From: Escherichia coli
Lineage (GTDB): Bacteria; Pseudomonadota; Gammaproteobacteria; Enterobacterales; Enterobacteriaceae
Length of the DNA: 64,000 nt
Assembly: GCF_003018255.1 (NCBI RefSeq)
Contig: NZ_CP027440.1
Reading direction: 5' to 3' (one strand)
Shown here: positions 8,173 through 46,682 of the stretch, piece after piece
Layout: each line of letters opens with the position of its first letter
Position numbering within the stretch: the first letter of the stretch is position 1
Notes under the pieces: model-generated
Told to the model about the DNA's origin: nothing
The model's database searches: none
Seen by the model: only the letters and a program-made list of their open reading frames with translations
Translations under genes and position numbers: made by a program

Positions 8173-9105
8173 TTAATCTTTATAAATCGCGAAATGTTCT
8201 CGTGCGGCAATAAGCTGCTCTTTAGTGAGCATAAACACACCATCGCCGCCGTTATCAAACTCCAGCCAGGTGAACGGAACATCCGGATATTGTTCCATAA
8301 GATGTACCATGCTGTTGCCCACTTCACAAATCAGCACGCCATCATCAGCGAGGTAATCTGCCGCGTTACCAAGAATGCGACGCGTCAGTTTCAGGCCGTC
8401 AGTGCCAGATGCCAGACCGAGTTCCGGCTCGTGGCGGTATTCGTTTGGCAGGTCGGACATATCTTCCGCATCGACATACGGCGGGTTGGTGACAATCAGG
8501 TCGTACTGCACTTTCGGCAAATCACGGAACAAGTCGGAACGAATCGGAATGACGTTGTGGATCAAACCGTGTTCTTCGATGTTCTGTTCAGCAACCGCCA
8601 GCGCGTCGGGAGAGATGTCTACCGCGTCGACTTCCGCTTCCGGGAAGGCATAAGCACAGGCAATGGCGATGCAGCCGCTACCGGTACACATATCTAAAAT
8701 GTGCTGCGGTTGCTTGCTGATGAGTCCGGCAAATTTATTGTTGATCAGTTCACCAATCGGCGAGCGCGGCACCAGCACGCGTTCATCGACGTAAAATTCA
8801 TGGCCACAGAACCAGGCTTTATTGGTCAGGTAAGCCACCGGAATGCGTTCGTTGACGCGGCGGATCACGCGCTCAACAATACGGTGTTTTTCGCTGGAAG
8901 TCAGACGCGCGGTGCGCATATCTTCCGGAATATCCAGCGGCAGGTAGAGTGAAGGCAACACCAGTTGCACGGCTTCATCCCACGGGTTATCGGTGCCGTG
9001 GCCGTACCAGATATTCGCCGCGCTGAAGCGGCTCACCGACCAGCGCAACATGTCCTGAATGGTTTGCAGCTCATTTACTGCTTCATCAACGAAAATTTTA
9101 TCCAC
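8173..9105 (-). CDS. prmB: Ribosomal protein uL3 glutamine N5-methyltransferase PrmB
   Basis: Six-frame ORF is 421 aa; start placed at in-frame GTG (complement of 9103-9105) giving 310 aa (M)[12 protein letters not shown]...; NPPY motif present. Confidence 0.88.
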
Positions 9106-9270
9106 GTATTCCTCCAGGGCATGATCGCAATAATTTCGGCGGCTAGTTTGCCATGAAGATGACGATAAATCAGCATTCACGCGCTGTGAGTGAGGAAAAA
9201 TACGTTTAAAACGATCGATTGTGCTACGAGTCAGGTAAACTGTAGGAAAATTAGAAATAGAGACAGTTAA

Positions 9271-9822
9271 ATGAAAAAGAAAACAACACTTAGCGAGGAG
9301 GACCAGGCGCTGTTTCGCCAGTTGATGGCGGGGACTCGCAAGATTAAGCAGGACACGATTGTCCACCGACCGCAGCGTAAAAAAATCAGCGAAGTACCGG
9401 TCAAGCGGTTGATTCAGGAGCAGGCCGATGCCAGCCATTATTTTTCCGATGAGTTTCAGCCATTATTAAATACCGAAGGTCCGGTGAAATATGTTCGCCC
9501 GGATGTCAGCCATTTTGAAGCGAAGAAACTGCGGCGCGGTGATTATTCACCGGAGTTGTTTCTTGATTTGCACGGTCTGACGCAGTTGCAAGCCAAACAG
9601 GAACTGGGGGCGTTGATTGCCGCCTGCCGCCGTGAACATGTGTTTTGTGCCTGCGTGATGCATGGTCACGGGAAGCATATTTTGAAGCAGCAAACGCCGC
9701 TGTGGCTGGCGCAGCATCCACATGTAATGGCATTTCACCAGGCACCAAAAGAGTATGGTGGCGATGCGGCTTTGTTGGTGTTGATTGAAGTGGAAGAGTG
9801 GCTGCCGCCTGAATTGCCCTGA
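9271..9822 (+). CDS. smrB: Smr-domain ribosome rescue endonuclease SmrB (YfcN)
   Basis: 183 aa ORF, recognised sequence. Confidence 0.9.
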
Positions 9823-9937
9823 ATGCTGGCATCGAATGCTGTAGAGGGAAAGTTCGCCTTAGCCATCATATCATAAAACAGACGCCGGAAATGACGACAG
9901 GGCCAGATGGCCCCGTCGACTTGTGAAAATATCGTCA

Positions 9938-10780
9938 CTACAATTCATTCAGTACATACTGGAATCGGCACGTAGAATCAATCGGTTGTCGGCTACTGGT
10001 GTTCACATTTACCACGATATCATGTAGCTGTTTATCGGTTACCGGATGCCGTGTGGGAGAAACCGTTACCGTTGATTTATCGCAACCGTAGGAGGTAAAG
10101 GTTAACAGTTCCGAGACCACGCGGCAGTATGCACCTCTGCTATCAAAAACGCTGCCATCACAGAGTTTGCCATCTTCCATCAGGTAGGTCGAAAGCGTGG
10201 TGGTGATTGTCGAGCCATTGGATTGCAACTGTAACGCCTTATTGTGGCTGACGTAATTCTCACTCCACGAGATGTCATACGACGCGACAGGGATCGTCGG
10301 ACATACTGTGGCATGGTTCGTTGGCCCAGTATATCTCCCGAATCCGGGTTGATCTGTGATCGTATAAAAAGAAGCGAGCCACGGGCAACCATAACTGTCG
10401 GACTGAACGGTTATCTTAAACGTCTCATATGCACACTGAAATGTCGCCGTATTTATCCCAGGACAATTCGAGCTATCAGCATTACCGTAGTCAGTTAAGA
10501 TCAACACTGGCGCTGGTCCCGACCCCGTCCACGAAATAACGCTGGCTTGCTCGTTCTTCCTTATGGCATCGTTGTACACCCCATAGGCCGCCTCGTTGGG
10601 AGTTAACACCGTGACATACAAACCTCCGGTGTTATGAATAGACATTTTCCCCTTCCCATAATAAATCTTCACACTGTCGAAACTCGCGCTGGTGAGTTTA
10701 TCCCCGGCATAGCTCTTTGGAACGCTCGCACTCATCACCAGCAACACCAGGCTCGCAAAAATCATTGTCCATTTTTTCAT
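9938..10780 (-). CDS. yfcO: Fimbrial-type protein YfcO (putative tip adhesin of Yfc fimbriae)
   Basis: ORF 9938-10825; start placed at MKKWTMIFASLVLLVMSA (signal peptide) immediately after yfcP stop; last gene of fimbrial operon. Confidence 0.7.
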   Translation of the reverse strand: MKKWTMIFASLVLLVMSASVPKSYAGDKLTSASFDSVKIYYGKGKMSIHNTGGLYVTVLTPNEAAYGVYNDAIRKNEQASVISWTGSGPAPVLILTDYGNADSSNCPGINTATFQCAYETFKITVQSDSYGCPWLASFYTITDQPGFGRYTGPTNHATVCPTIPVASYDISWSENYVSHNKALQLQSNGSTITTTLSTYLMEDGKLCDGSVFDSRGAYCRVVSELLTFTSYGCDKSTVTVSPTRHPVTDKQLHDIVVNVNTSSRQPIDSTCRFQYVLNEL

Positions 10781-10781
10781 G

Positions 10782-11306
10782 TTAAAAATACTCAAAGGTT
10801 GCCGTCGCCGTAGCGCTGAAATCACCGGACGTCACATCCCGCCCGCCCTTCGCCTGTAGCCAGGCATTAAAATTGAGACTGTTATTGCCCTGGTTTAGCG
10901 GGAACGTGACACCCGTTGTGCTGTTGACTGGCACCGCCGCGCCTGCCGCCGTTTCAATACCAATCCCAGCTCCGGATGCAGAAGATGAGGCGTCAAAGGC
11001 CAGAAATCCGGGCAGTTCGCTATCTTCCGTTCCCGTCAGCGTTACCCTGACGCTAAACAGCGTGGAGCTTTTGCAATCCTTCAATTGAAATACCAACGGT
11101 ACTCGCTCTGACTGCCCGAGGTTCATTAAATCGCTGGCGGCAATGGTGGGAAAGTGCACCTCCGCCAACAGGCTACCGTTGATCACTGGCGTACAGGATT
11201 TACCGAGCAAATTACCGGTAAAGTGCAGGTTGTCGACCGCCGGGGCAGTAACGCTGTACAACAGCATCAGGCTACAGATAAAAACCAACGCACGCTTTTT
11301 CTTCAT
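10782..11306 (-). CDS. yfcP: Fimbrial minor subunit YfcP
   Basis: 174 aa ORF with signal peptide and C-terminal beta-strand motif (...FEYF) typical of pilin subunits. Confidence 0.75.
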   Translation of the reverse strand: MKKKRALVFICSLMLLYSVTAPAVDNLHFTGNLLGKSCTPVINGSLLAEVHFPTIAASDLMNLGQSERVPLVFQLKDCKSSTLFSVRVTLTGTEDSELPGFLAFDASSSASGAGIGIETAAGAAVPVNSTTGVTFPLNQGNNSLNFNAWLQAKGGRDVTSGDFSATATATFEYF

Positions 11307-11773
11307 TGATAATCCACCTGTAACGTGGCCCAGGCTTCAAAGTCTGCCTCAGGCAAATCGACACCGCTCTTTTTGACCGGTACTGCGGTTAACACCGGTA
11401 AGGCCGTTTCATTCACCACCAGTGCCGTATTGAGCTTAAAGCTCTGCCCTGCCTGTTTAAGCCGAATCGCCAGGCCAGAGATATCGGTGCTAACCGCGGC
11501 ATCGTCAAAGTCGCTCTGCGTACCGCTCCAGCTCAATTTCATTTCCATTGATGGGTCGCGAACCGCCGTATCACAGGTAATGGAATACGGCACGGTTTGC
11601 TCATAGTTACTGCCATTAATGTCATCAACAAAAACATCCTGAAAGGTTATTTCAATGGTTTTACCGTTGCTAATAGTGCAGTTAGGTGGCTGCACTAAAT
11701 AGCCGTGAAAAGAGACATTTGAGAGTGCCATCGAGCTAAAGCCCCACAGCATAAGAAGTGAGATCCGTTTCAT
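11303..11773 (-). CDS. yfcQ: Fimbrial minor subunit YfcQ
   Basis: 156 aa ORF with signal peptide, C-terminal ...VDYQ pilin-like terminus; overlapping stops/starts with neighbours. Confidence 0.75.
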   Translation of the reverse strand: MKRISLLMLWGFSSMALSNVSFHGYLVQPPNCTISNGKTIEITFQDVFVDDINGSNYEQTVPYSITCDTAVRDPSMEMKLSWSGTQSDFDDAAVSTDISGLAIRLKQAGQSFKLNTALVVNETALPVLTAVPVKKSGVDLPEADFEAWATLQVDYQ

Positions 11774-12276
11774 TGGTAATCCACCACAATTGTGGCACTG
11801 GCGTTAAATTCCGCTGCCGATAAGGTTGTACCACTCTGTTTCACCGGCACTGCTTCGAGTGCAGGGACGCCCGAGGAAAAATTAAACGGCAACCATGAAC
11901 CAGACGTTAAGTCGAGTGTTGAGTGATCACTACTTTTCTGAACCCGAATACCAAACCCTGAAATACCTGTGCTGATAACTGTTTCACCGTTGATCACAAC
12001 CGTTGTTGCCCGCATCTGTAAACGCAGGTCATCCATTGCCAGGTTGTTACAAACAAGCGAGTAATCAATGGGTTGTTTATAACCTACCCCATCGATCTTA
12101 TTGATGAATACATTACCAAACTCAACCGTCGCACCATTAACCGTGCAAGGAGGAGGGGCATCAACGAGCACTCGTAAACTCAAATTTACTGATTTACTCC
12201 CTGCAACTGCAAAGTCGCTACCAATACAACACATCAGTAACCATGTTCCCGCCCAGACTGAACAAGATCTTTTCAT
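11770..12276 (-). CDS. yfcR: Fimbrial minor subunit YfcR
   Basis: 168 aa ORF with signal peptide, C-terminal ...VDYQ pilin-like terminus. Confidence 0.75.
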   Translation of the reverse strand: MKRSCSVWAGTWLLMCCIGSDFAVAGSKSVNLSLRVLVDAPPPCTVNGATVEFGNVFINKIDGVGYKQPIDYSLVCNNLAMDDLRLQMRATTVVINGETVISTGISGFGIRVQKSSDHSTLDLTSGSWLPFNFSSGVPALEAVPVKQSGTTLSAAEFNASATIVVDYQ

Positions 12277-12292
12277 ACTTACTTCCCCGTCA

Positions 12293-13042
12293 TTAACCTT
12301 TGCGGCTCAGCTCTTCATCAACCTGACAACTGTTGCCGCTACAGGTGAAAAAGAGTGGCATCCGTGCGCCATAGTCGTTGACATAGGTCAGCACCGGCAC
12401 GCTAGCCATCTTCACCTTGAGCGGTGCGGAGGTTTTTGGCGACATCACTATCGGCGAGAAACCGTCTGCCGGATTGCCATTTTTTTGCGCGCTGGCATTA
12501 CTGAAAATGACGTAATACGGAGTAGGGTTATTGACGGTAAATTCCTGACCGTTACGGGTTAAGGTCACTTTATGCTGCCATGGGTTTTGCATGCTAGCTT
12601 TTTCCAGGGCTTTAGGTCGCCAGAAAAGTTTGATGCGTGTCTGCAGCGCAATTTGTAACGTATTGGCTTTGTTCGATTTCGGCGGAATTTCACGCACATT
12701 GAAATAAAATATCGATTCACGATCGGCAGGCAATTTATGGATATCTGGCAATCCCTGAATTTTCACCTGACCATTCATCATTGCATCAATGCGCTGTACG
12801 GGGGGCAATACTGCCAGCGGCGAACTAATCTTGACGCCCTTTTCATCTTCGATCCAGCTTTGTGCCAGATAAGGCTGTTTCGGGTCGTTATTACGCAGCG
12901 TGACGCTGATGGATTTATCGCTTTCATTAAAAATCAGGCGAGTACGATCGGGCGTTACTGACGCCAGAGCAGAAAAACTTACCGTTGCAGCCAGTAACGA
13001 CAGTACCGTTGCCAATGTTTTGACAGAGAGATGTTTAGTCAT
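12293..13042 (-). CDS. yfcS: Periplasmic fimbrial chaperone (PapD-like) YfcS
   Basis: 249 aa ORF with signal peptide and PapD-family features. Confidence 0.85.
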   Translation of the reverse strand: MTKHLSVKTLATVLSLLAATVSFSALASVTPDRTRLIFNESDKSISVTLRNNDPKQPYLAQSWIEDEKGVKISSPLAVLPPVQRIDAMMNGQVKIQGLPDIHKLPADRESIFYFNVREIPPKSNKANTLQIALQTRIKLFWRPKALEKASMQNPWQHKVTLTRNGQEFTVNNPTPYYVIFSNASAQKNGNPADGFSPIVMSPKTSAPLKVKMASVPVLTYVNDYGARMPLFFTCSGNSCQVDEELSRKG

Positions 13043-13061
13043 GGATCATTCCTTAATCACG

Positions 13062-15701
13062 TTATTGGTTCGATGAAACAGACATCGGCGGTTCCATTGG
13101 TGTCACCTGTTGTGTCTGCTCCTGAATTACAGGTTGAATATCATGCGTTATGACGGGAGCACTTCCCCCTTTTTGCTGGCATGGCAACAACAAGCCATTG
13201 AACAGGTCATTCGGTAACGGATCTGGCAGGCTGATATCGCAGTGAGATTCTCCCTCCCAGAAAACGGTCATATGTTCACCCGGCTTAACGCCTGCAAGAT
13301 AAACATTACCTTCGTCATCAACCAGCCCAACTTGTTGTTGATTATCGTTTTTCACTTCCGCCCCAAATGGCGGATGGCTGCCATCCTGCAAGCGCAGCAC
13401 TACCATCGCCTTCTCACCGCTGATCACCGCAAATTTACGGTAGCCAATAGCGCCTTCCGTCAGCGTTGCCTGGACCACCGATTGGGTAGCTTCGGCGTTT
13501 TCCGGTAGTTTGTTCAAATCGATATAAGCCTGGTTACGGTAGTAATCATTAACATCTGCCACCACCGCTTTCCCGAACATGTTGGTATAAACGGCGGAAC
13601 CATTACCTTCGACCGGCACATTAGCAACGCCATCGGCGTCGATTAGCAGACGTGTGCCTCCCATATTTTGCGTACGATGCAACGCCCCGCCGTGAGCAGT
13701 CAGTGTTACACCGCCCTGTAAGGAGACCCCCGCAGATGTGTATTGCCCCTCATGGTAGTTTGCACTCAGGTCAACTTTTGCCAGCGTACCGTCATGACTG
13801 TAATAACCATCAAGACTGGTGTGATTTTCACTGGTTCCGGCGCTCAACGTATAGTGGCTAGCGTCATCGATGCGGTGATACAAACTCGCCTGGCTGCTGT
13901 CGGCACCACTGCCATAATTGCCGTTGTAACTGATGGTGCTGTTGTCACCCCATGGCAAACTCAAGGACAGATAAACACCTTTGTCGGCACTTTTATCATA
14001 TTCGTAGCGATAACCGGTGAGAGAAACGCTCAGGTTGCGAAGACTTCCTAAATTGAAATAATGAGAAAGCATCATGTTGTAGTTGGTCTGATCCTCGCGA
14101 TCCCAATAGGTATGGTGAGAATAATTGAGATAGACCGAAACGCGCGCATCCCTAAAGTTCTGGTTGTAAGTGACCGTGTACATTTCCTTGTCGTTACCCG
14201 TGCGCGCACGGTCGGTGTCGTTCGCATCCAGATACTCACTCATGGTCATGTAGTTTTTTTCAGAGAAGCGATATCCGGCAAACGTCACCCGACTGTTGAG
14301 TTCATCGAAATCTTTGGCATAGCTGACGCGATAAGAGTTGCCGTCCAGCGTTTTGTTGCCATACACGCTGTTATCGTCGAGTTGAACACGAGAGTGAGTG
14401 ACATCAAACGCTAGCGCTCCGAACAGCGCGAGGTCACGACCGAGGCCTAACGCTGCCGACTGGTAGTTTTCATCGGCCAATGCCCCGCCGTAGAGCGACC
14501 AGCCATTCGCAATCCCCCATGACGCCTCACCGCCCGAGAAGAAGCTGCCTGCAACCTGATGGTCCCAGTTTTGTGGACGCCCCATTGTCACTTTGTAACG
14601 CACCTGACCGGGGCGGGTCAGAAACGGCATGGACGCCGTGCTGACGTCATATTCCTGTACCTGACCGTTTTGTTCTTCAATGCGGACATGCAGCGTGCCA
14701 GATACGGAATCGCCAATATCCTGAATGCGGAATGGACCTGCGGGCACCTGGGTTTCGTAAATGACACGGCCCATTTGGGTTACGGTCACTTTAGCGGTAG
14801 TGTGTGCAACGCCGGAAATATCGGGTGCGTAGCCGCGCATGTTTGGCGGTAACATTTGATCATCGGTACTGATGCTGCCGCCAATGTAACTGAAGCCATC
14901 AAAAATATCGGAGTTGAGATAATCTTCACCCAGCGAAAGTTTGGCTTTTAATGACGGCAAGGCGCGCCAGGCGTAGTAACGGCTCCACTCCCAGTTTTTT
15001 TGCGTACCGCTATCATCAGTGTCGCCGTCATCGTTACTGCGGGTATGTTGGTAATCGCTCTGCCAGTCGGCTCGTAAGCGCCACGGCCCCACGTTAACGC
15101 CGACCGTACCATTACCGCTGATGTCGTTAGTGTCATCCCCCCCATTTTCATGTCGGGTTTGTGCGTTGATACTGTAATCGGCAATAAGCCCAGGAATCCC
15201 CTCATCCCAACGCGAAGGTGGGTCCCAGTCATCGTCAGTGTATTCGAGATATGCCTGTGGCACAGAAACTAAGAGCGCAGATTGACTTAAATCGCCCTTA
15301 ATTTCCATACCTCCTATTTGGTCAGTTTTCAGACATTGTCCATCATGACCCCATTGCAAACTCTTCGCAAAATCATCTTTGAAGCCAAACTGGGCTATCA
15401 GTTCAGGTGGTAAGCAGGCATATGATTTATTCGGATCGTTTTCAGCTACATACCAATAGATATCGTATTCATCAGGTAATGGGTGATTATTTACATGAAC
15501 ACGTAAATTGTATTTCCCTGGTTCAACATACCCTTTTTGAGAAAAACGCCCCAGATCAATTTTGGTATTTCCTTTTAACTCCAGAAATCGAGCATCAAAT
15601 TGAATGGTATCATCTGCCAGTACATTAAAAGGACTCCCGGAAATTGCCAGAGCAATCCACCATGAAAGCCCCCGTAAACGAAGAAAAGAATGTTCAGGCA
15701 T
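13062..15701 (-). CDS. yfcU: Outer-membrane fimbrial usher, intact (879 aa)
   Basis: Single uninterrupted 879 aa ORF with usher-family composition and C-terminal domain; in K-12 the equivalent is split (yfcT/yfcU pseudogene). Confidence 0.85.
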   Translation of the reverse strand: MPEHSFLRLRGLSWWIALAISGSPFNVLADDTIQFDARFLELKGNTKIDLGRFSQKGYVEPGKYNLRVHVNNHPLPDEYDIYWYVAENDPNKSYACLPPELIAQFGFKDDFAKSLQWGHDGQCLKTDQIGGMEIKGDLSQSALLVSVPQAYLEYTDDDWDPPSRWDEGIPGLIADYSINAQTRHENGGDDTNDISGNGTVGVNVGPWRLRADWQSDYQHTRSNDDGDTDDSGTQKNWEWSRYYAWRALPSLKAKLSLGEDYLNSDIFDGFSYIGGSISTDDQMLPPNMRGYAPDISGVAHTTAKVTVTQMGRVIYETQVPAGPFRIQDIGDSVSGTLHVRIEEQNGQVQEYDVSTASMPFLTRPGQVRYKVTMGRPQNWDHQVAGSFFSGGEASWGIANGWSLYGGALADENYQSAALGLGRDLALFGALAFDVTHSRVQLDDNSVYGNKTLDGNSYRVSYAKDFDELNSRVTFAGYRFSEKNYMTMSEYLDANDTDRARTGNDKEMYTVTYNQNFRDARVSVYLNYSHHTYWDREDQTNYNMMLSHYFNLGSLRNLSVSLTGYRYEYDKSADKGVYLSLSLPWGDNSTISYNGNYGSGADSSQASLYHRIDDASHYTLSAGTSENHTSLDGYYSHDGTLAKVDLSANYHEGQYTSAGVSLQGGVTLTAHGGALHRTQNMGGTRLLIDADGVANVPVEGNGSAVYTNMFGKAVVADVNDYYRNQAYIDLNKLPENAEATQSVVQATLTEGAIGYRKFAVISGEKAMVVLRLQDGSHPPFGAEVKNDNQQQVGLVDDEGNVYLAGVKPGEHMTVFWEGESHCDISLPDPLPNDLFNGLLLPCQQKGGSAPVITHDIQPVIQEQTQQVTPMEPPMSVSSNQ

Positions 15702-32767: not shown

Positions 32768-34306
32768 TCACCCAACGCCTTTCGCTGTAAACGGCGGTTT
32801 CGCAAACCAAACCAATACCGTAAGTAAGATAAAAGCAATAGCCGCCATACGGAAAATCTCATTTGCAGAAATTGAAAGTGACTGCTGAGTTATTTCATTA
32901 TTAATTTCATTAAGAACTCCTGAAAGCGAACCATAGTATTTATCCATAATTTGTGACGATGAATTAAATACGGGGTTAAATTGATCGATGGTTGCTGTCA
33001 ACTGACTATGGTGTAACGATTCGCGTCGTCCCCACAGCGTCATTGTCAACGACGTACCAACTGATCCTGACAAGGTACGAAAAAAATTACTCATACTCGA
33101 GGCATTGGCAAATTTATTATCTGGCAACCCTGAAAACGAAATCGTTGTTAAGGGTAAAAAGAAACAGGCAACGGCGAATCCCTGGAAAAACTGTGGCAAA
33201 ATGATGCCTGTAAAATCAATCGTTGGCATAAATGTCACAGAACGCCAGTAATAGCAAACCGCATACATCAAAAAACTAAATGTCACCAACAACCGCATAT
33301 CAATTTTGTTGCCATAACGTCCTATCAAAGGTGATATTAATAGCGGCATGATGCCGATGGGCGCATAGGCAAGTCCGGCCCATATCGCATTATACCCCAT
33401 CGTTTCCTGGAGTAACTGCGGCATAAGGACTATCGCCCCAGAGTAAAATAAATACGCGCATGTGATACTCACAATACCAATGGTGAAATTACGGGACTTA
33501 AACAAACTGAGATCAAGAATCGGATTCTCTGAGGTCGACTCCCAAATGACTAAAGAAATCAGAGAAATAACTGACACTACTGTTAGTATTATTATTGTAC
33601 TCGAGTTGAACCAATCCAGATCGCGCCCTTTATCAAGCATTATCTGCAAGCCACCAACACCGAGCACTAACAGGGTCAGTCCTGGTAGATTCATTTTGAC
33701 CGGTGAAGTCTCAGTTTCTCTTCCTTTAAGTAAGGTTAAGCATAATGTCAGAACGATAATCCCCATAGGGACATTGATTAAAAATATCCAACCCCAGCTA
33801 AAGTTATCGCAAATATAGCCGCCCAATATCGGCCCACATATCGGAGCGATAATTACGGTCATTGACCATAATGCCAAAGCAAATGTTCTTTTTTCTGGCG
33901 GATAATTCCTTAATAATAAACTCTGTGACAGTGGAATTAACGGCCCCGCCATTAAGCCCTGAACGACTCTAAAAAATATCAGCACATCAAGATTGGTCGA
34001 TAGGCTACACATTAATGAAGATAGTGAAAAAAAGGTTACTGAAAGTAAAAATAATCTTAATTCGCCTATTCTTTGTGCCAGCCTGCCGGTAACAGGGATC
34101 GCAATGGCATTTGCTACGCCAAACGAAGTGATAACCCAGGTGCCTTCGTCTGTTGATGCTCCCAGAAAGCCAGATATTGTCGGTATTGCGACGTTAGAAA
34201 TAGTGGAATCCAACATTTGCATAAACGTCGCTAAGGACAATGCAATAGTAACGCACCATAACGTCCCACCGGTTAATGGTGCCGGAGTTGATTTAGTGAT
34301 TGCCAT
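32768..34306 (-). CDS. emrY: MFS multidrug efflux pump EmrY (EmrB paralogue)
   Basis: 512 aa 14-TM-type ORF, recognised sequence. Confidence 0.93.
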   Translation of the reverse strand: MAITKSTPAPLTGGTLWCVTIALSLATFMQMLDSTISNVAIPTISGFLGASTDEGTWVITSFGVANAIAIPVTGRLAQRIGELRLFLLSVTFFSLSSLMCSLSTNLDVLIFFRVVQGLMAGPLIPLSQSLLLRNYPPEKRTFALALWSMTVIIAPICGPILGGYICDNFSWGWIFLINVPMGIIVLTLCLTLLKGRETETSPVKMNLPGLTLLVLGVGGLQIMLDKGRDLDWFNSSTIIILTVVSVISLISLVIWESTSENPILDLSLFKSRNFTIGIVSITCAYLFYSGAIVLMPQLLQETMGYNAIWAGLAYAPIGIMPLLISPLIGRYGNKIDMRLLVTFSFLMYAVCYYWRSVTFMPTIDFTGIILPQFFQGFAVACFFLPLTTISFSGLPDNKFANASSMSNFFRTLSGSVGTSLTMTLWGRRESLHHSQLTATIDQFNPVFNSSSQIMDKYYGSLSGVLNEINNEITQQSLSISANEIFRMAAIAFILLTVLVWFAKPPFTAKGVG

Positions 34307-35469
34307 TAAAGTTGTCCATTATGCGAAATAATGTTGCTAATTTCTTTTTCTATCGGAGTAGTATCGATAACTAAAGCCTTACTGGTATAAGCAGGCATGG
34401 AGGTCACGGTTGAAGCCAGCTCAGGCATCTCAGCAATGTCTTCGTCCTTCGTATCAATAGTTGCAGTCATCGATAAACCAATACGTAAGGGATGTTCCAT
34501 GAGTTCTTTTGGATCAAGAGAAACTTCAACCGGTACACGCTGAACGATTTTGATCCAGTTCCCTGTCGCATTTTGTGCAGGTAATAAGGAGAACGCATTG
34601 CCGGTTCCCATATTGATTCCTGTCACCCGACCATGAAACACAACATTTTCACCATAAAGATCGCTGATAATATTGACCGATTGACCAATCCGTACATCCG
34701 TGAGTTGTGTTTCTTTAAAGTTGGCATTAACCCACATTTGACGTGCCGGTACGACAGCCATTAACGATTGTCCGGGACTCACTGTTTCGCCGACCTGAAC
34801 ACTTCGCTGGGCAATATAGCCGGTAACAGGACTCTTAATATCCGTACGTTTAAGCGCTAACCAGGCTTCTTTGGTTGCATCTGCCGCTTCAACGACTTGT
34901 GGCTGACGGTTTAATGGTGTGTTCATTACTAAAGCTTTATTCGCTTTATAAGCCTGGATAGCGGCATTCAATGCCGCTTTGCTACTTATTAACGTATCTT
35001 TGGTATGCTCCAGCGTTTCTTTTGAAATAACCCCCTGCTTCGCTAAAGGCACACGACGGTTATAATCTTCTAAAGATTGTTGATACTGAATACGTGCTGA
35101 AGCGACTTCGGCACTGTATTGTTTATCCTGTAAGTACAGTTTATTCGTTTGCCGAACAATATTTGCCAGATTATTTTTAGCTTTATTGAGTGCGATAGTG
35201 GCATCAGTCTTATCCAGTGAGACTAAAATGTCACCCTGTCGAACGTAGTTCGTATCTTTATGATTAACGACAGTGACGCTGCCTGAAACTTGTGCAGAAA
35301 TTGGATCTGCATTCCCCGTGACATAGGCGTCATCTGTACTAATCATGTCTTCTAATTCCATTGACCAATAGGCATAGGCACCTGAAAACGCAATAAATAA
35401 AACTACCGCCAATAAAGAAAAGTATTTTCTTCTGTTAGAATGTTTTTTATTTGAATTAATCTGTTCCAC
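34306..35469 (-). CDS. emrK: Membrane fusion protein EmrK (EmrA paralogue)
   Basis: 387 aa ORF with N-terminal TM anchor and coiled-coil region; stop/start overlap with emrY. Confidence 0.93.
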   Translation of the reverse strand: MEQINSNKKHSNRRKYFSLLAVVLFIAFSGAYAYWSMELEDMISTDDAYVTGNADPISAQVSGSVTVVNHKDTNYVRQGDILVSLDKTDATIALNKAKNNLANIVRQTNKLYLQDKQYSAEVASARIQYQQSLEDYNRRVPLAKQGVISKETLEHTKDTLISSKAALNAAIQAYKANKALVMNTPLNRQPQVVEAADATKEAWLALKRTDIKSPVTGYIAQRSVQVGETVSPGQSLMAVVPARQMWVNANFKETQLTDVRIGQSVNIISDLYGENVVFHGRVTGINMGTGNAFSLLPAQNATGNWIKIVQRVPVEVSLDPKELMEHPLRIGLSMTATIDTKDEDIAEMPELASTVTSMPAYTSKALVIDTTPIEKEISNIISHNGQL

Positions 35470-35642
35470 TTTTATCTCTCATTTCGCATAGATGAAATTT
35501 ATGAATTGAATGAAAAGAGTATTCATTCTTCATATCAAACACAGTGCATGTGTTGCACATTATCCCAGGAACGTTGGAGGCCTAATTTAAATGAGGTGCA
35601 AAAAAAACAACAGAGGACTAAACCGTGGCTTTTGCAATACAA

Positions 35643-35660
35643 TTCTTACGCATGTAGGAT
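35643..35660. promoter_or_regulatory. 18-bp EvgA-box-like inverted repeat TTCTTACG-CA-TGTAGGAT in emrK-evgA divergent region
   Basis: Matches the TTCYTACA-NN-TGTARGAA pattern shared by three other sites in this window. Confidence 0.5.
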
Positions 35661-35884
35661 TAGTGAGAAGACTTATAGTGCTAATGTGAAACTATAAATC
35701 ATCGGTACAATCCCTGATTTTATTGTTGACATTTCATTTATGCCGACTATTTATATGGTATACTTGTTGAATTATCTTAAAGGAAGCTCAAATTTTCTTA
35801 TTTTGATTGAGAAAATGAGATGATGCCTTATGTCTGTATTACTACAGGGAGAAGGGAAATGCTTCATTGCAAAGGGAATAATCT

Positions 35885-36499
35885 ATGAACGCAATAATTA
35901 TTGATGACCATCCTCTTGCTATCGCAGCAATTCGTAATTTATTGATCAAAAACGATATTGAAATCTTAGCGGAGTTGACTGAAGGGGGAAGTGCCGTTCA
36001 GCGGGTGGAAACACTTAAACCTGATATCGTCATCATTGATGTCGATATCCCCGGAGTTAACGGTATCCAGGTGTTAGAAACGCTGAGGAAGCGCCAATAT
36101 AGCGGAATTATTATTATCGTCTCCGCTAAAAATGACCATTTTTACGGGAAACATTGTGCTGATGCTGGCGCTAATGGTTTCGTGAGTAAAAAAGAAGGCA
36201 TGAACAATATCATTGCAGCTATTGAAGCTGCAAAAAATGGCTACTGCTATTTCCCCTTCTCTCTCAACCGGTTTGTTGGAAGTTTAACGTCCGACCAGCA
36301 AAAACTCGACTCCTTATCGAAACAAGAAATTAGTGTCATGCGGTATATTCTTGATGGCAAGGATAATAATGACATTGCTGAAAAAATGTTCATCAGCAAC
36401 AAAACTGTCAGCACTTATAAAAGTCGCTTGATGGAAAAATTAGAATGCAAATCACTGATGGATCTTTACACATTCGCACAACGTAACAAAATCGGCTAA
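35885..36499 (+). CDS. evgA: Response regulator EvgA (NarL/FixJ family)
   Basis: 204 aa ORF, receiver domain plus LuxR-type HTH. Confidence 0.95.
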   Translation: MNAIIIDDHPLAIAAIRNLLIKNDIEILAELTEGGSAVQRVETLKPDIVIIDVDIPGVNGIQVLETLRKRQYSGIIIIVSAKNDHFYGKHCADAGANGFVSKKEGMNNIIAAIEAAKNGYCYFPFSLNRFVGSLTSDQQKLDSLSKQEISVMRYILDGKDNNDIAEKMFISNKTVSTYKSRLMEKLECKSLMDLYTFAQRNKIG

Positions 36500-36503
36500 C
36501 CAC

Positions 36504-39500
36504 ATGAAGTTTTTACCCTATATTTTTCTTCTCTGTTGTGGTCTTTGGTCGACCATAAGTTTCGCAGACGGAGATTACATCGAATATCGTGGCATCAGTA
36601 GTAACAACCGTGTCACACTTGATCCACTACGTCTGAGCAACAAGGAATTACGTTGGCTCGCGAGCAAAAAAAATCTTGTGATTGCAGTACACAAGTCCCA
36701 AACAGCTACGTTGTTGCATACCGATTCGCAGCAACGGATTCGTGGTATTAATGCTGATTATTTAAATCTTTTAAAAAGAGCGTTAAATATCAAATTAACA
36801 CTCCGGGAATACGCAGATCATCAAAAAGCAATGGACGCGCTGGAAGACGGTGAAGTTGATATAGTGTTATCACATTTAGTTGCTTCGCCGCCTCTTAATG
36901 ATGACATTGCTGCAACCAATCCTCTGATAATTACCTTTCCGGCGCTGGTCACTACCCTTCACGATTCAATGCGACCGCTTACCTCATCAAAACCAGTAAA
37001 TATTGCTCGAGTAGCAAATTATCCCCCAGACGAGGTAATTCATCAATCATTTCCAAAAGCAACAATTATCTCTTTTACAAATTTATATCAGGCATTAGCA
37101 TCCGTCTCAGCCGGACAGAATGATTACTTTATTGGTAGTAACATCATTACCAGCAGTATGATTTCCCGTTATTTTACTCACTCCTTAAATGTAGTGAAGT
37201 ATTATAACTCACCGCGTCAATATAACTTTTTATTAACCAGAAAAGATTCTATCGTTCTTAATGAAGTACTCAATCGATTTGTTGATGCTTTAACAAATGA
37301 AGTTCGCTATGAAGTATCACAAAATTGGCTTGATACAGGAAATCTGGCCTTTCTGAACAAACCATTAGAACTCACTGAACATGAAAAACAGTGGATTAAG
37401 CAGCATCCCGATTTAAAGGTGCTAGAAAATCCTTACTCGCCACCCTATTCTATGACAGATGAAACTGGCTCAGTTCGGGGCGTGATGGGTGATATTCTTA
37501 ATATTATTACCTTGCAAACAGGTTTAAATTTTTCTCCGATCACCGTTTCACACAATATTCATGCTGGGACACAGCTTAACCCCGGTGGATGGGATATATT
37601 GCCCGCCGCTATTTATAGTGAAGATCGAGAAAATAATGTTTCATTTGCTGAAGCCTTCATAACAACGCCTTACGTTTTTGTCATGCAAAAAGCGCCTGAC
37701 AGTGAACAAACATTAAAAAAAGGAATGAAAGTTGCCATTCCCTATTATTATGAGCTTCATTCGCAATTAAAAGAGATGTATCCGGAGGTAGAGTGGATAA
37801 AAGTCGATAACGCCAGCGCTGCATTTCACAAGGTTAAAGAAGGTGAACTTGATGCTCTGGTCGCGACACAGTTAAATTCGCGTTACATGATCGACCATTA
37901 CTATCCTAATGAACTTTATCATTTTCTTATTCCCGGCGTTCAGAATGCATCACTTTCGTTCGCTTTTCCTCGCGGAGAACCGGAACTTAAGGATATTATT
38001 AATAAAGCACTGAATGCAATTCCCCCAAGCGAAGTTCTGCGCCTGACCGAAAAATGGATTAAAATGCCCAATGTGACCATTGACACATGGGACCTCTATA
38101 GCGAGCAATTTTATATTGTTACGACATTATCCGTTTTATTAGTTGGCAGTAGCCTTTTATGGGGATTCTACCTGTTACGCTCAGTTCGTCGTCGTAAAGT
38201 TATTCAGGGTGATTTAGAAAACCAAATATCATTCCGGAAAGCGCTCTCGGATTCCTTACCGAATCCAACTTATGTTGTAAACTGGCAAGGTAATGTCATT
38301 AGTCACAATAGTGCATTTGAACATTATTTCACTGCTGATTACTATAAAAATGCAATGTTACCATTAGAAAACAGTGAATCCCCCTTTAAAGATGTTTTTT
38401 CTAATACGCATGAAGTCACAGCAGAAACGAAAGAAAACCGAACAATATACACACAGGTATTTGAAATTGATAATGGCATCGAGAAAAGATGCATTAATCA
38501 CTGGCATACCTTATGTAATCTGCCAGCAAGCGAACATGCTGTTTATATTTGTGGTTGGCAAGATATTACCGAGACGCGTGATTTAATTCATGCACTCGAA
38601 GTAGAGAGAAATAAAGCGATCAATGCAACTGTCGCAAAAAGCCAGTTTCTGGCAACAATGAGTCACGAAATAAGAACACCAATAAGCTCCATTATGGGCT
38701 TCCTGGAACTTCTGTCGGGTTCTGGTCTTAGCAAGGAACAACGGGTGGAGGCGATTTCACTTGCCTACGCCACCGGACAATCACTCCTCGGCTTAATTGG
38801 TGAAATCCTTGATGTCGACAAAATTGAATCGGGTAACTATCAACTTCAACCACAATGGGTCGATATCCCTACTTTAGTCCAGAACACTTGTCACTCTTTC
38901 GGTGCGATTGCTGCAAGCAAATCGATCGCATTAAGTTGCAGCAGTACGCTTCCTGAACGCTACCTGGTTAAGATCGACCCTCAGGCGTTTAAGCAGGTCT
39001 TATCTAATTTACTGAGTAATGCTCTCAAATTTACTACCGAGGGGGCAGTAAAAATTACGACCTCCCTGGGTCACATTGATGACAACCACGCTGTTATCAA
39101 AATGACGATTATGGATTCTGGAAGTGGATTATCGCAGGAAGAACAACAACAACTGTTTAAACGCTATAGCCAAACAAGTGCAGGTCGTCAGCAAACAGGT
39201 TCTGGTTTAGGCTTAATGATCTGCAAAGAATTAATTAAAAACATGCAGGGCGATTTGTCATTAGAAAGTCATCCAGGCATAGGAACGATATTTACGATCA
39301 CAATCCCGGTAGAAATTACCCAACAAGTGGCGGCTGTCGAGGCAAAAGCAGAACAACCTATAACACTACCTGAAAAGTTGAGCATATTAATCGCGGATGA
39401 TCATCCGACCAACAGGCTATTACTCAAACGCCAGCTAAATCTATTAGGATATGATGTTGATGAAGCCACTGATGGTGTGCAAGCGCTACACAAAGTCAGT

Positions 39501-40097
39501 ATGCAACATTATGATCTGCTTATTACTGACGTTAATATGCCGAATATGGATGGTTTTGAGTTGACTCGCAAACTCCGAGAGCAAAATTCTTCCTTACCCA
39601 TCTGGGGGCTTACAGCCAACGCACAGGCTAACGAACGTGAAAAAGGGTTAAATTGCGGCATGAACTTATGTTTGTTCAAACCGTTGACTCTGGATGTACT
39701 GAAAACACATTTAAGTCAGTTACACCAGGTTGCGCATATTGCACCTCAGTATCGCCACCTTGATATCGAGGCCCTGAAGAATAATACGGCGAATGATCTA
39801 CAACTGATGCAGGAGATTCTCATGACTTTCCAGCATGAAACGCATAAAGATCTACCCGCTGCGTTTCATGCACTAGAAGCTGGCGATAACAGAACTTTCC
39901 ATCAGTGTATTCATCGCATCCACGGTGCGGCTAACATCCTGAATTTGCAAAAGTTGATTAATATTAGCCACCAGTTAGAAATAACACCTGTTTCAGATGA
40001 CAGTAAGCCTGAAATTCTTCAGTTGCTGAACTCTGTAAAAGAACACATTGCAGAGCTGGACCAGGAGATTACTGTTTTCTGTCAGCAAAATGACTAA
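36504..40097 (+). CDS. evgS: Hybrid sensor histidine kinase EvgS (BvgS-like, periplasmic Venus-flytrap domains, HK, receiver, HPt)
   Basis: 1197 aa ORF, H-box (MSHEIRTP), receiver and HPt regions recognisable. Confidence 0.95.
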   Translation: MKFLPYIFLLCCGLWSTISFADGDYIEYRGISSNNRVTLDPLRLSNKELRWLASKKNLVIAVHKSQTATLLHTDSQQRIRGINADYLNLLKRALNIKLTLREYADHQKAMDALEDGEVDIVLSHLVASPPLNDDIAATNPLIITFPALVTTLHDSMRPLTSSKPVNIARVANYPPDEVIHQSFPKATIISFTNLYQALASVSAGQNDYFIGSNIITSSMISRYFTHSLNVVKYYNSPRQYNFLLTRKDSIVLNEVLNRFVDALTNEVRYEVSQNWLDTGNLAFLNKPLELTEHEKQWIKQHPDLKVLENPYSPPYSMTDETGSVRGVMGDILNIITLQTGLNFSPITVSHNIHAGTQLNPGGWDILPAAIYSEDRENNVSFAEAFITTPYVFVMQKAPDSEQTLKKGMKVAIPYYYELHSQLKEMYPEVEWIKVDNASAAFHKVKEGELDALVATQLNSRYMIDHYYPNELYHFLIPGVQNASLSFAFPRGEPELKDIINKALNAIPPSEVLRLTEKWIKMPNVTIDTWDLYSEQFYIVTTLSVLLVGSSLLWGFYLLRSVRRRKVIQGDLENQISFRKALSDSLPNPTYVVNWQGNVISHNSAFEHYFTADYYKNAMLPLENSESPFKDVFSNTHEVTAETKENRTIYTQVFEIDNGIEKRCINHWHTLCNLPASEHAVYICGWQDITETRDLIHALEVERNKAINATVAKSQFLATMSHEIRTPISSIMGFLELLSGSGLSKEQRVEAISLAYATGQSLLGLIGEILDVDKIESGNYQLQPQWVDIPTLVQNTCHSFGAIAASKSIALSCSSTLPERYLVKIDPQAFKQVLSNLLSNALKFTTEGAVKITTSLGHIDDNHAVIKMTIMDSGSGLSQEEQQQLFKRYSQTSAGRQQTGSGLGLMICKELIKNMQGDLSLESHPGIGTIFTITIPVEITQQVAAVEAKAEQPITLPEKLSILIADDHPTNRLLLKRQLNLLGYDVDEATDGVQALHKVSMQHYDLLITDVNMPNMDGFELTRKLREQNSSLPIWGLTANAQANEREKGLNCGMNLCLFKPLTLDVLKTHLSQLHQVAHIAPQYRHLDIEALKNNTANDLQLMQEILMTFQHETHKDLPAAFHALEAGDNRTFHQCIHRIHGAANILNLQKLINISHQLEITPVSDDSKPEILQLLNSVKEHIAELDQEITVFCQQND

Positions 40098-45384: not shown

Positions 45385-45636
45385 AGCAATACCTATTAGT
45401 TAATTAAATATATGTTAATTTAGCGTTTATTTAAGGCATAATGCTCTCTATAAATAATCCGCAAAATATCGTCGTAGCTGCACTCGATATTTTTAAATTC
45501 CTGTATCAAGTGCTGATAATCATTTCATCGCCACTTCCAATTCCTTTCTGCATGGTAAGTAGTGAGGACGAAAAGAAGAATATGATAAATATTGGTTCGC
45601 GGTAATCAGAGAGGGCCGCGACATTTGTGATGTTAT

Positions 45637-45654
45637 TCTTACAACTGTAAGAAG
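45637..45654. promoter_or_regulatory. 18-bp EvgA-box-like inverted repeat TTCTTACA-AC-TGTAAGAA upstream of frc
   Basis: Near-perfect palindrome about 250 bp upstream of frc start; best match to the shared pattern. Confidence 0.55.
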
Positions 45655-46626: not shown

Positions 46627-46644
46627 ATCTTACAGTTGTAGTTA
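46627..46644. promoter_or_regulatory. EvgA-box-like inverted repeat ATCTTACA-GT-TGTAGTTA upstream of yfdX
   Basis: Matches shared pattern; about 100 bp upstream of yfdX start. Confidence 0.45.
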
Positions 46645-46664
46645 TTATCGCAAGAAGTATTTTA

Positions 46665-46682
46665 GTCTTACAATTGTAGGAA
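46665..46682. promoter_or_regulatory. EvgA-box-like inverted repeat GTCTTACA-AT-TGTAGGAA upstream of yfdX
   Basis: Matches shared pattern; second site 38 bp from the first. Confidence 0.5.

Follow-up and report, generated by a model that had tools for sequence, protein, structure and literature searches.

The DNA analysed here (the window) is a stretch of 64,000 nucleotides from the chromosome of Escherichia coli, in which the genes of interest are ordered emrY-emrK (minus strand), evgA-evgS (plus strand), yfdE-yfdV-oxc-frc-yfdX (minus strand) and ypdI (plus strand). The emrK gene (34306..35469, minus) encodes the periplasmic adaptor subunit of the EmrKY-TolC efflux pump, its product being assigned to the EmrA/EmrK adaptor subfamily, and is followed by emrY (32768-34306, minus). 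In the opposite direction, evgA (35885..36499, plus) encodes a response regulator and is followed by evgS (36504-40097, plus). With the NCBI EvgA equivalog model (cut-off 251), the product of evgA reaches 437.9 bits and is thus confirmed as an EvgA equivalog; the regulator EvgA is therefore present at the locus.

The emrK start codon (35469, minus) and the evgA ATG (35885) are separated by 415 bp, and the range 35470-35884, which a sequence-only reading of the window had given for the emrK/evgA divergent promoter, turned out to be exactly this spacer. This non-coding spacer has a G+C content of 33% (vs 49% for the window); an Rfam scan of positions 35300-36000 matched no RNA family. At the evgA end lies the 9-codon leader ORF evgL (35859..35888, plus; MLHCKGNNL), whose stop codon overlaps the evgA ATG. 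The evgL ORF is annotated in K-12 and is present in the window as well; both the ORF and its translational coupling have been described (PMC11210196).

Within the spacer, the sequence TTCTTACGCATGTAGGAT is present at 35643-35660, exactly as quoted in the sequence-only reading, which had proposed it as a binding site (box) for EvgA. The box lies upstream of both genes, its edges being 174 bp from the emrK start codon and 225 bp from the evgA ATG. The box consists of two half-sites with a 2-bp spacer, TTCTTACG-CA-TGTAGGAT (no strand is assigned to this or to any other box), and each half-site agrees with TTCYTACA at seven of eight positions: the left half has G for A at position 8, and the right half has T for A at its outer end. 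With a 701-bp query around the box, matches with annotated emrK and evgA were found in 5398 of 5426 complete E. coli genomes.

We scanned the 64-kb window with the pattern TTCYTACANNTGTARGAA (TTCYTACA-NN-TGTARGAA, 16 specified positions), a consensus reportedly due to Masuda & Church 2003. The box at 35643-35660 fits the pattern at 14 of the 16 specified positions. The scan also recovered the three further sites that had been claimed for the window: 45636-45653 (TTCTTACAACTGTAAGAA, no mismatches), located between yfdX and frc (yfdW) and upstream of frc, as well as 46665-46682 (one mismatch) and 46627-46644 (three mismatches), both located between yfdX and ypdI and upstream of yfdX. The two yfdX boxes (46627..46682) are 38 bp apart, centre to centre. 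The number of sites with up to three mismatches, four in the window, compares with 0.63 expected, and none of 100 shuffled sequences reached four; with up to two mismatches there are three sites vs 0.03 expected, and the expectation for a 415-bp spacer is ∼2 × 10−4. Extrapolation from the window scan gives about two chance sites with up to two mismatches per whole genome, thus the motif match alone is not decisive.

Two K-12 loci that had no part in deriving the pattern carry such boxes as well: TTCTTACAGCTGTAGGCA is found upstream of safA and TTCTTACAGGTGTAGGCT upstream of ydeP. The boxes of frc/yfdW, yfdX, safA-ydeO and ydeP have the same 8-2-8 layout as the emrK/evgA box and the same CTTAC and GTAG cores. 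Among the boxes of the acid-resistance regulon, only the emrK/evgA box sits in a divergent spacer that is shared with the operon of the regulator itself.

The site had been described as an 18-bp inverted repeat, and this description holds for the match to the consensus more than for the symmetry of the site itself. Its dyad symmetry is weak, with five of the eight arm positions self-complementary, and a repeat search of the region did not list the box as an inverted repeat; the significance of the box thus comes from the consensus match and not from symmetry. A weight matrix built from the five other sites, which themselves score 18.9–26.5 bits, gave the box 13.8 bits, the fourth rank in the window behind three of the sites used for building; in shuffled sequence, 0.23 hits of this score or higher would be expected per 64 kb. 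This is a conservative figure, as the matrix includes the two spacer columns, is overfit and penalises the CA allele. By score and rank, as well as by the pairing of its arms, the emrK/evgA box is one of the weaker boxes in comparison with those of the acid-resistance regulon.

In the genome of K-12 MG1655 the EvgA site is TTCTTACGCCTGTAGGAT (∼2,483,513-2,483,530, by offset), with the same locus, position, orientation and flanking genes, evgL included. All 16 specified positions are identical between K-12 and the window, and the only difference within the box is in the unspecified 2-bp spacer (CC in K-12, CA in the window). We aligned nine E. coli alleles (those of the window and K-12 plus seven picked across the identity range), and all nine keep the 16 specified positions of the window's box. 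The 34-nt K-12 allele (spacer CC) is found exactly in 4889 of the 5426 genomes, and the 34-nt window allele (spacer CA) in 369; the window has the minority form, which within the box departs from that of K-12 only in the non-specified spacer dinucleotide. Over the spacer as a whole the allele of the window is uncommon, with at least 99% identity in 28 of the 5426 E. coli genomes and ∼97% in most. The accession of the EvgA protein is identical in all seven fetched alleles.

Beyond these alleles, a diverged lineage, labelled E. coli SCPM-O-B-8794, has a perfect box, TTCTTACACCTGTAGGAA, at the orthologous place. A second diverged lineage, L004, has TTCTTACACGTGTAGGCA (one mismatch), also at the orthologous place, and in an Enterobacter genome (L007) TTCCTACGTCTGTAGTCC is located between a gene of the HlyD family (EmrK-like) and a gene for an EvgA homologue, 68% identical. 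Klebsiella and Buttiauxella have a common sequence, TTCCTACAGCTGTCATCC, upstream of their evgA homologues. In the first two of these lineages, the box has come closer to the EvgA consensus instead of departing from it.

In an alignment of 11 sequences, conservation within the spacer is highest over the box and its flank (35631-35658). At 35631-35649, 17 of 18 columns are invariant (the spacer mean is 56%), and the longest invariant run, 35636-35649, comprises the emrK-proximal half-site with its flank; of the 18 box columns, 14 are invariant. The conserved flank on the emrK side, 35631..35642 (TTTGCAATACAA, no strand assigned), holds a CA dinucleotide that is found 9–10 nt after every box examined.

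Two of the records deserve a separate description. L004 is a 590-kb contig (NZ_CACVAF010000001.1) labelled Yersinia vastinensis IP38594 that carries emrK-evgA; its EvgA is 94% identical to that of the window, and the spacer itself is far more diverged. The record reflects either a horizontal transfer or a wrong label. Between 14 and 20 of the E. coli matches are on plasmids. One of them, the 114-kb plasmid pCFSAN061762 (NZ_CP042902.1), matches the window from ∼35512 onward, at ∼8183-13889 of the plasmid; there evgA-evgS is located between IS1 copies, emrK is absent, and the EvgA box has been retained together with the promoter of evgA, which suggests an IS1-mobilised evgAS module.

The published data agree with these observations. 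The box stands upstream of emrK, a gene whose dependence on evgA is reported in passages of PMC6393483 and PMC8350985. Direct binding of EvgA to the emrKY promoter is attributed to Kato 2000 in statements of PMC8350985 and PMC9496106, and a passage of PMC5573083, citing Tanabe 1998 and Kato 2000, has EvgA binding upstream of evgAS and regulating both evgAS and emrKY. An emrK-gfp fusion was silent without evgA (PMC6393483), and EmrK and EmrY increase together with other EvgA-regulated proteins. For other members of the regulon, inverted repeats bound by EvgA at yfdX and yfdWUVE are mentioned in PMC3720670 with reference to Masuda & Church 2003, and all directly regulated genes were described as having an EvgA binding site (PMC4283999). 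The EvgS/EvgA system has been presented as the equivalent, in E. coli, of BvgS/BvgA (PMC9496106, PMC5573083). Our literature searches found no EvgA ChIP or SELEX data and almost no matches to the sequence or the name of the box in text; a search prompted by the PDB entries 8ZWN and 5F64 found no paper on an EvgA structure.

We conclude, with a probability of about 90%, that 35643-35660 is an EvgA operator in the emrK-evgA spacer of E. coli. The observations made here are the sequence match, the recurrence in the regulon, the conservation and the spacing shared with other promoters (see below); the binding and the dependence on evgA are taken from the literature, as far as the passages cited above report them. 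The box is the already described EvgA site of this spacer, real and conserved, and not a new one. The proposal that the divergent promoter region of emrK and evgA holds an EvgA box is thus supported by the locus, the regulon, the conservation peak and the literature. The accompanying claim, that EvgA controls both operons from this site, stands for the activation of emrKY, which is well supported by the literature including the emrK-gfp fusion, and is contested for the autoregulation of evgAS.

The proposed mechanism is as follows. Mild acid together with alkali metal would activate the sensor kinase EvgS, which would then phosphorylate EvgA, a regulator of the NarL/FixJ family. A dimer of EvgA would bind the half-sites TTCTTACG and ATCCTACA, with 2 bp between them, and from this position would activate the otherwise weak emrK promoter, so that the EmrKY-TolC efflux pump would be made. 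The exact start site of emrK, the position of the box relative to it and the way in which EvgA would contact RNA polymerase are inferred.

For the analysis of the geometry, the DNA following each box was aligned in the direction of the regulated gene and anchored on the box; the set included five distinct promoters and two lineage copies of the emrK promoter. At offset 53/54, and at no other, a −10-like hexamer is present in at least three of the five distinct promoters; four of the five have one there: emrK (TAAATT), yfdX (TATGAT), safA (TGtTATATT) and frc (TATTCT). The fifth promoter, that of ydeP, has TGtTAATTT at this offset, under the scoring threshold, and the two emrK lineage copies have TAGAAT (L004) and TACAAT (Enterobacter). 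With a background density of −10-like hexamers of 0.046 per position, we estimate the probability of such a coincidence as ∼0.005, counting the promoters as about four independent groups and allowing for about 75 offsets. The pairs safA/ydeP and frc/yfdX look paralogous, and the common spacing thus rests on fewer independent observations than the number of promoters.

The predicted −10 hexamer of emrK, TAAATT, is located at 35584..35589 (minus), 54–59 nt after the box. Transcription of emrK is predicted to start near 35577, which is ∼2,483,447 in K-12 MG1655. With this −10 hexamer, the centre of the box would be near −74.5, a position predicted to be that of an upstream activator (class I-like), not of a replacement for the −35 element. 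A further −10-like hexamer on the emrK side, GATAAT, follows the box at a distance of 79 nt, and a genomic SELEX paper (PMC3946193) predicts a different, constitutive emrK promoter, closer to the gene.

Another arrangement considered was a class II geometry, with the box abutting TTGTAT as the −35 element and AGTCCT as the −10 element. It was rejected: the element has neither the A at −11 nor the T at −7, and its counterpart in frc and yfdX is TCTCTG. The AGTCCT element itself is located at 35614..35619 (minus), 24–29 nt after the box toward emrK, or at about −42 to −37 of the predicted promoter. At the same offset safA has AGTCCT and ydeP AGTCTT, and TCTCTG is found at the Enterobacter locus as well as in frc and yfdX; the statistics of this sharing are weak, as some of the promoters are apparently paralogous.

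The emrK side of the spacer has one more feature, a palindrome GTGCA-TGTGT-TGCAC at 35544-35558, flagged as a terminator-like hairpin on the minus strand. If the predicted transcription start is right, it is inside the 5′ leader of emrK. The arms of this hairpin differ in B2-type strains (GTTTTGCAC).

Of the alternatives, a role of the box as mainly, or also, a positive autoregulatory operator for evgAS survives best, although we regard it as distinctly less probable than not. The two operons share the spacer that holds the box, with 225 bp from the box to the evgA ATG, and EvgA binding upstream of evgAS with regulation of the operon is reported in the passage of PMC5573083 that refers to Tanabe 1998 and Kato 2000; in PMC11210196 EvgA is said to be ‘reported to be autoregulatory’. 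EvgA-like boxes occur upstream of the evgA homologues in Klebsiella and Buttiauxella, and in Buttiauxella the tested upstream ORFs had no EmrK-type match; the IS1-flanked plasmid copy of evgAS has lost emrK and kept the box. Other data point in the opposite direction. PMC8174306, in a statement citing Eguchi 2003, has evgAS not autoregulated and the EvgS levels constant; evgA fusions did not respond to mild acid (PMC11210196); the EvgA and EvgS protein levels stayed steady while proteins of the regulon rose 2- to 11-fold; and in macrophages emrK was induced with evgA expression (mRNA) unchanged (PMC6393483). Thus, the response of evgA and evgS to activation is given as regulated in some reports and as unchanged in four later sources.

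The arrangement toward evgA also differs. The core promoter region of evgA is located at 35726..35764 (plus), with TTGACA at 35726-35731 and an extended −10 element, TGgTATACT, at 35756-35764; from PMC11210196 a start site near 35771 is inferred, ∼114 nt ahead of the ATG. Relative to the start site used in that study, the box is centred ∼119.5 bp upstream. On this side of the box there is no −10-like hexamer at offset 53/54, and the nearest one, TACAAT, is at offset 46. This hexamer (35706-35711), 46 nt from the box and upstream of TTGACA, may belong to an additional evgA promoter. All 11 aligned sequences conform to TAnnnT here, which leaves room for an upstream evgA promoter that may respond to EvgA. 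By lineage, the plus-strand sequence at 35706-35711 varies between TACAAT, TATAAT, TATCAT and TATAGT, with T1, A2 and T6 constant. Given the conflicting literature and the different geometry on the evgA side, autoregulation of evgAS via this box is possible but unproven.

The surroundings of the box allow for a more elaborate reading of EvgA promoters. Binding sites of BvgA in Bordetella pertussis, such as the one of the fha promoter, are inverted heptads TTTCCTA. The core of the EvgA half-site, TTCYTA, is essentially the BvgA heptad, and the primary BvgA site is also far upstream of the core promoter, with weaker downstream sites filled cooperatively toward −35. Unlike this array, the emrK/evgA box is accompanied only by short conserved remnants, CA at +9/10 and TC at +26/27, which are located between box and promoter and are common to all the promoters; the likely paralogy of safA/ydeP and of frc/yfdX makes the two dinucleotides statistically unconvincing. 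EvgA promoters could share a fixed multi-part layout, with a strong box at about −74.5, the CA and, at about −42 to −37, an element with the TC (AGTCYT or TCTCTG), in which the remnants would be weak secondary EvgA half-sites filled cooperatively toward −35.

On the evgA side of the box, starting 7 nt from it, there is an inverted repeat, 35667-35679 / 35691-35703 (GAAGACTTATAGT / ACTATAAATCATC), with arms of 13 nt that show 85% complementarity and are separated by 11 nt. All 11 aligned sequences have the arm cores ATAGT and ACTAT unchanged and the DNA between the arms is variable, a pattern expected of a protein-binding site. A second regulator of the divergent promoters might bind to the repeat. 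Taken jointly, this suggestion and the multi-part layout of EvgA promoters are offered as a speculative and rather unlikely reading.

Comparison with other regulators is less specific. In NarL 7-2-7 sites and in RcsB boxes, as with EvgA, a dimer with GerE-type helix-turn-helix domains is bound to an inverted repeat with a short spacer, and the sequence and orientation of the NarL and RcsB half-sites are unlike those of the EvgA box. The EvgA protein has sequence similarity to the NarL and RcsB structures.

It is also conceivable, though in our estimation quite improbable, that EvgA bound at the box acts chiefly by displacing H-NS from a silenced spacer (counter-silencing). The spacer is AT-rich in comparison with the window, the genomic SELEX table of PMC3946193 lists H-NS at the emrK/evgA spacer, and a box centred at about −74.5 would be far from the core promoter. 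Against this, several promoter sequences that are unrelated have the same distance between box and −10 hexamer; such a distance would not be needed to displace H-NS, and its recurrence therefore favours a stereospecific contact. Counter-silencing is plausible as a contribution to the activation of emrK by EvgA, with the fixed spacing left unexplained by it.

Finally, a match that is due to chance or belongs to another regulator of the NarL/FixJ family (RcsB, NarL or UhpA), with EvgA bound elsewhere in the spacer, is very improbable: the two mismatches, the weak dyad symmetry, the two or so such chance matches per genome and the resemblance of the half-site core TCYTA to motifs of related regulators of this family are outweighed by the low expectation for a single spacer, by the scan of the spacer, which found no second site with up to four mismatches to the consensus, by the position of the box at the conservation peak with its 16 specified positions kept in nine E. 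coli alleles, and by the approach of diverged lineages to the EvgA consensus.

The link between EvgA and emrKY is established, and identification of the site as an EvgA operator therefore adds no new biology. The additions made here are modest: conservation of the spacer peaks at the box in E. coli and beyond, and the window has a minority spacer allele. The common distance from box to −10 hexamer, as seen also at frc, yfdX, safA and ydeP (53–54 nt), leads to a testable prediction of the emrK start site. For the autoregulation half of the usual account, the evidence is contested and the geometry is different. For the biology of E. coli, the site connects the sensing of acid by EvgS/EvgA with synthesis of the EmrKY-TolC pump, which contributes to deoxycholate resistance and to Shigella survival within macrophages (PMC8350985, PMC6393483).
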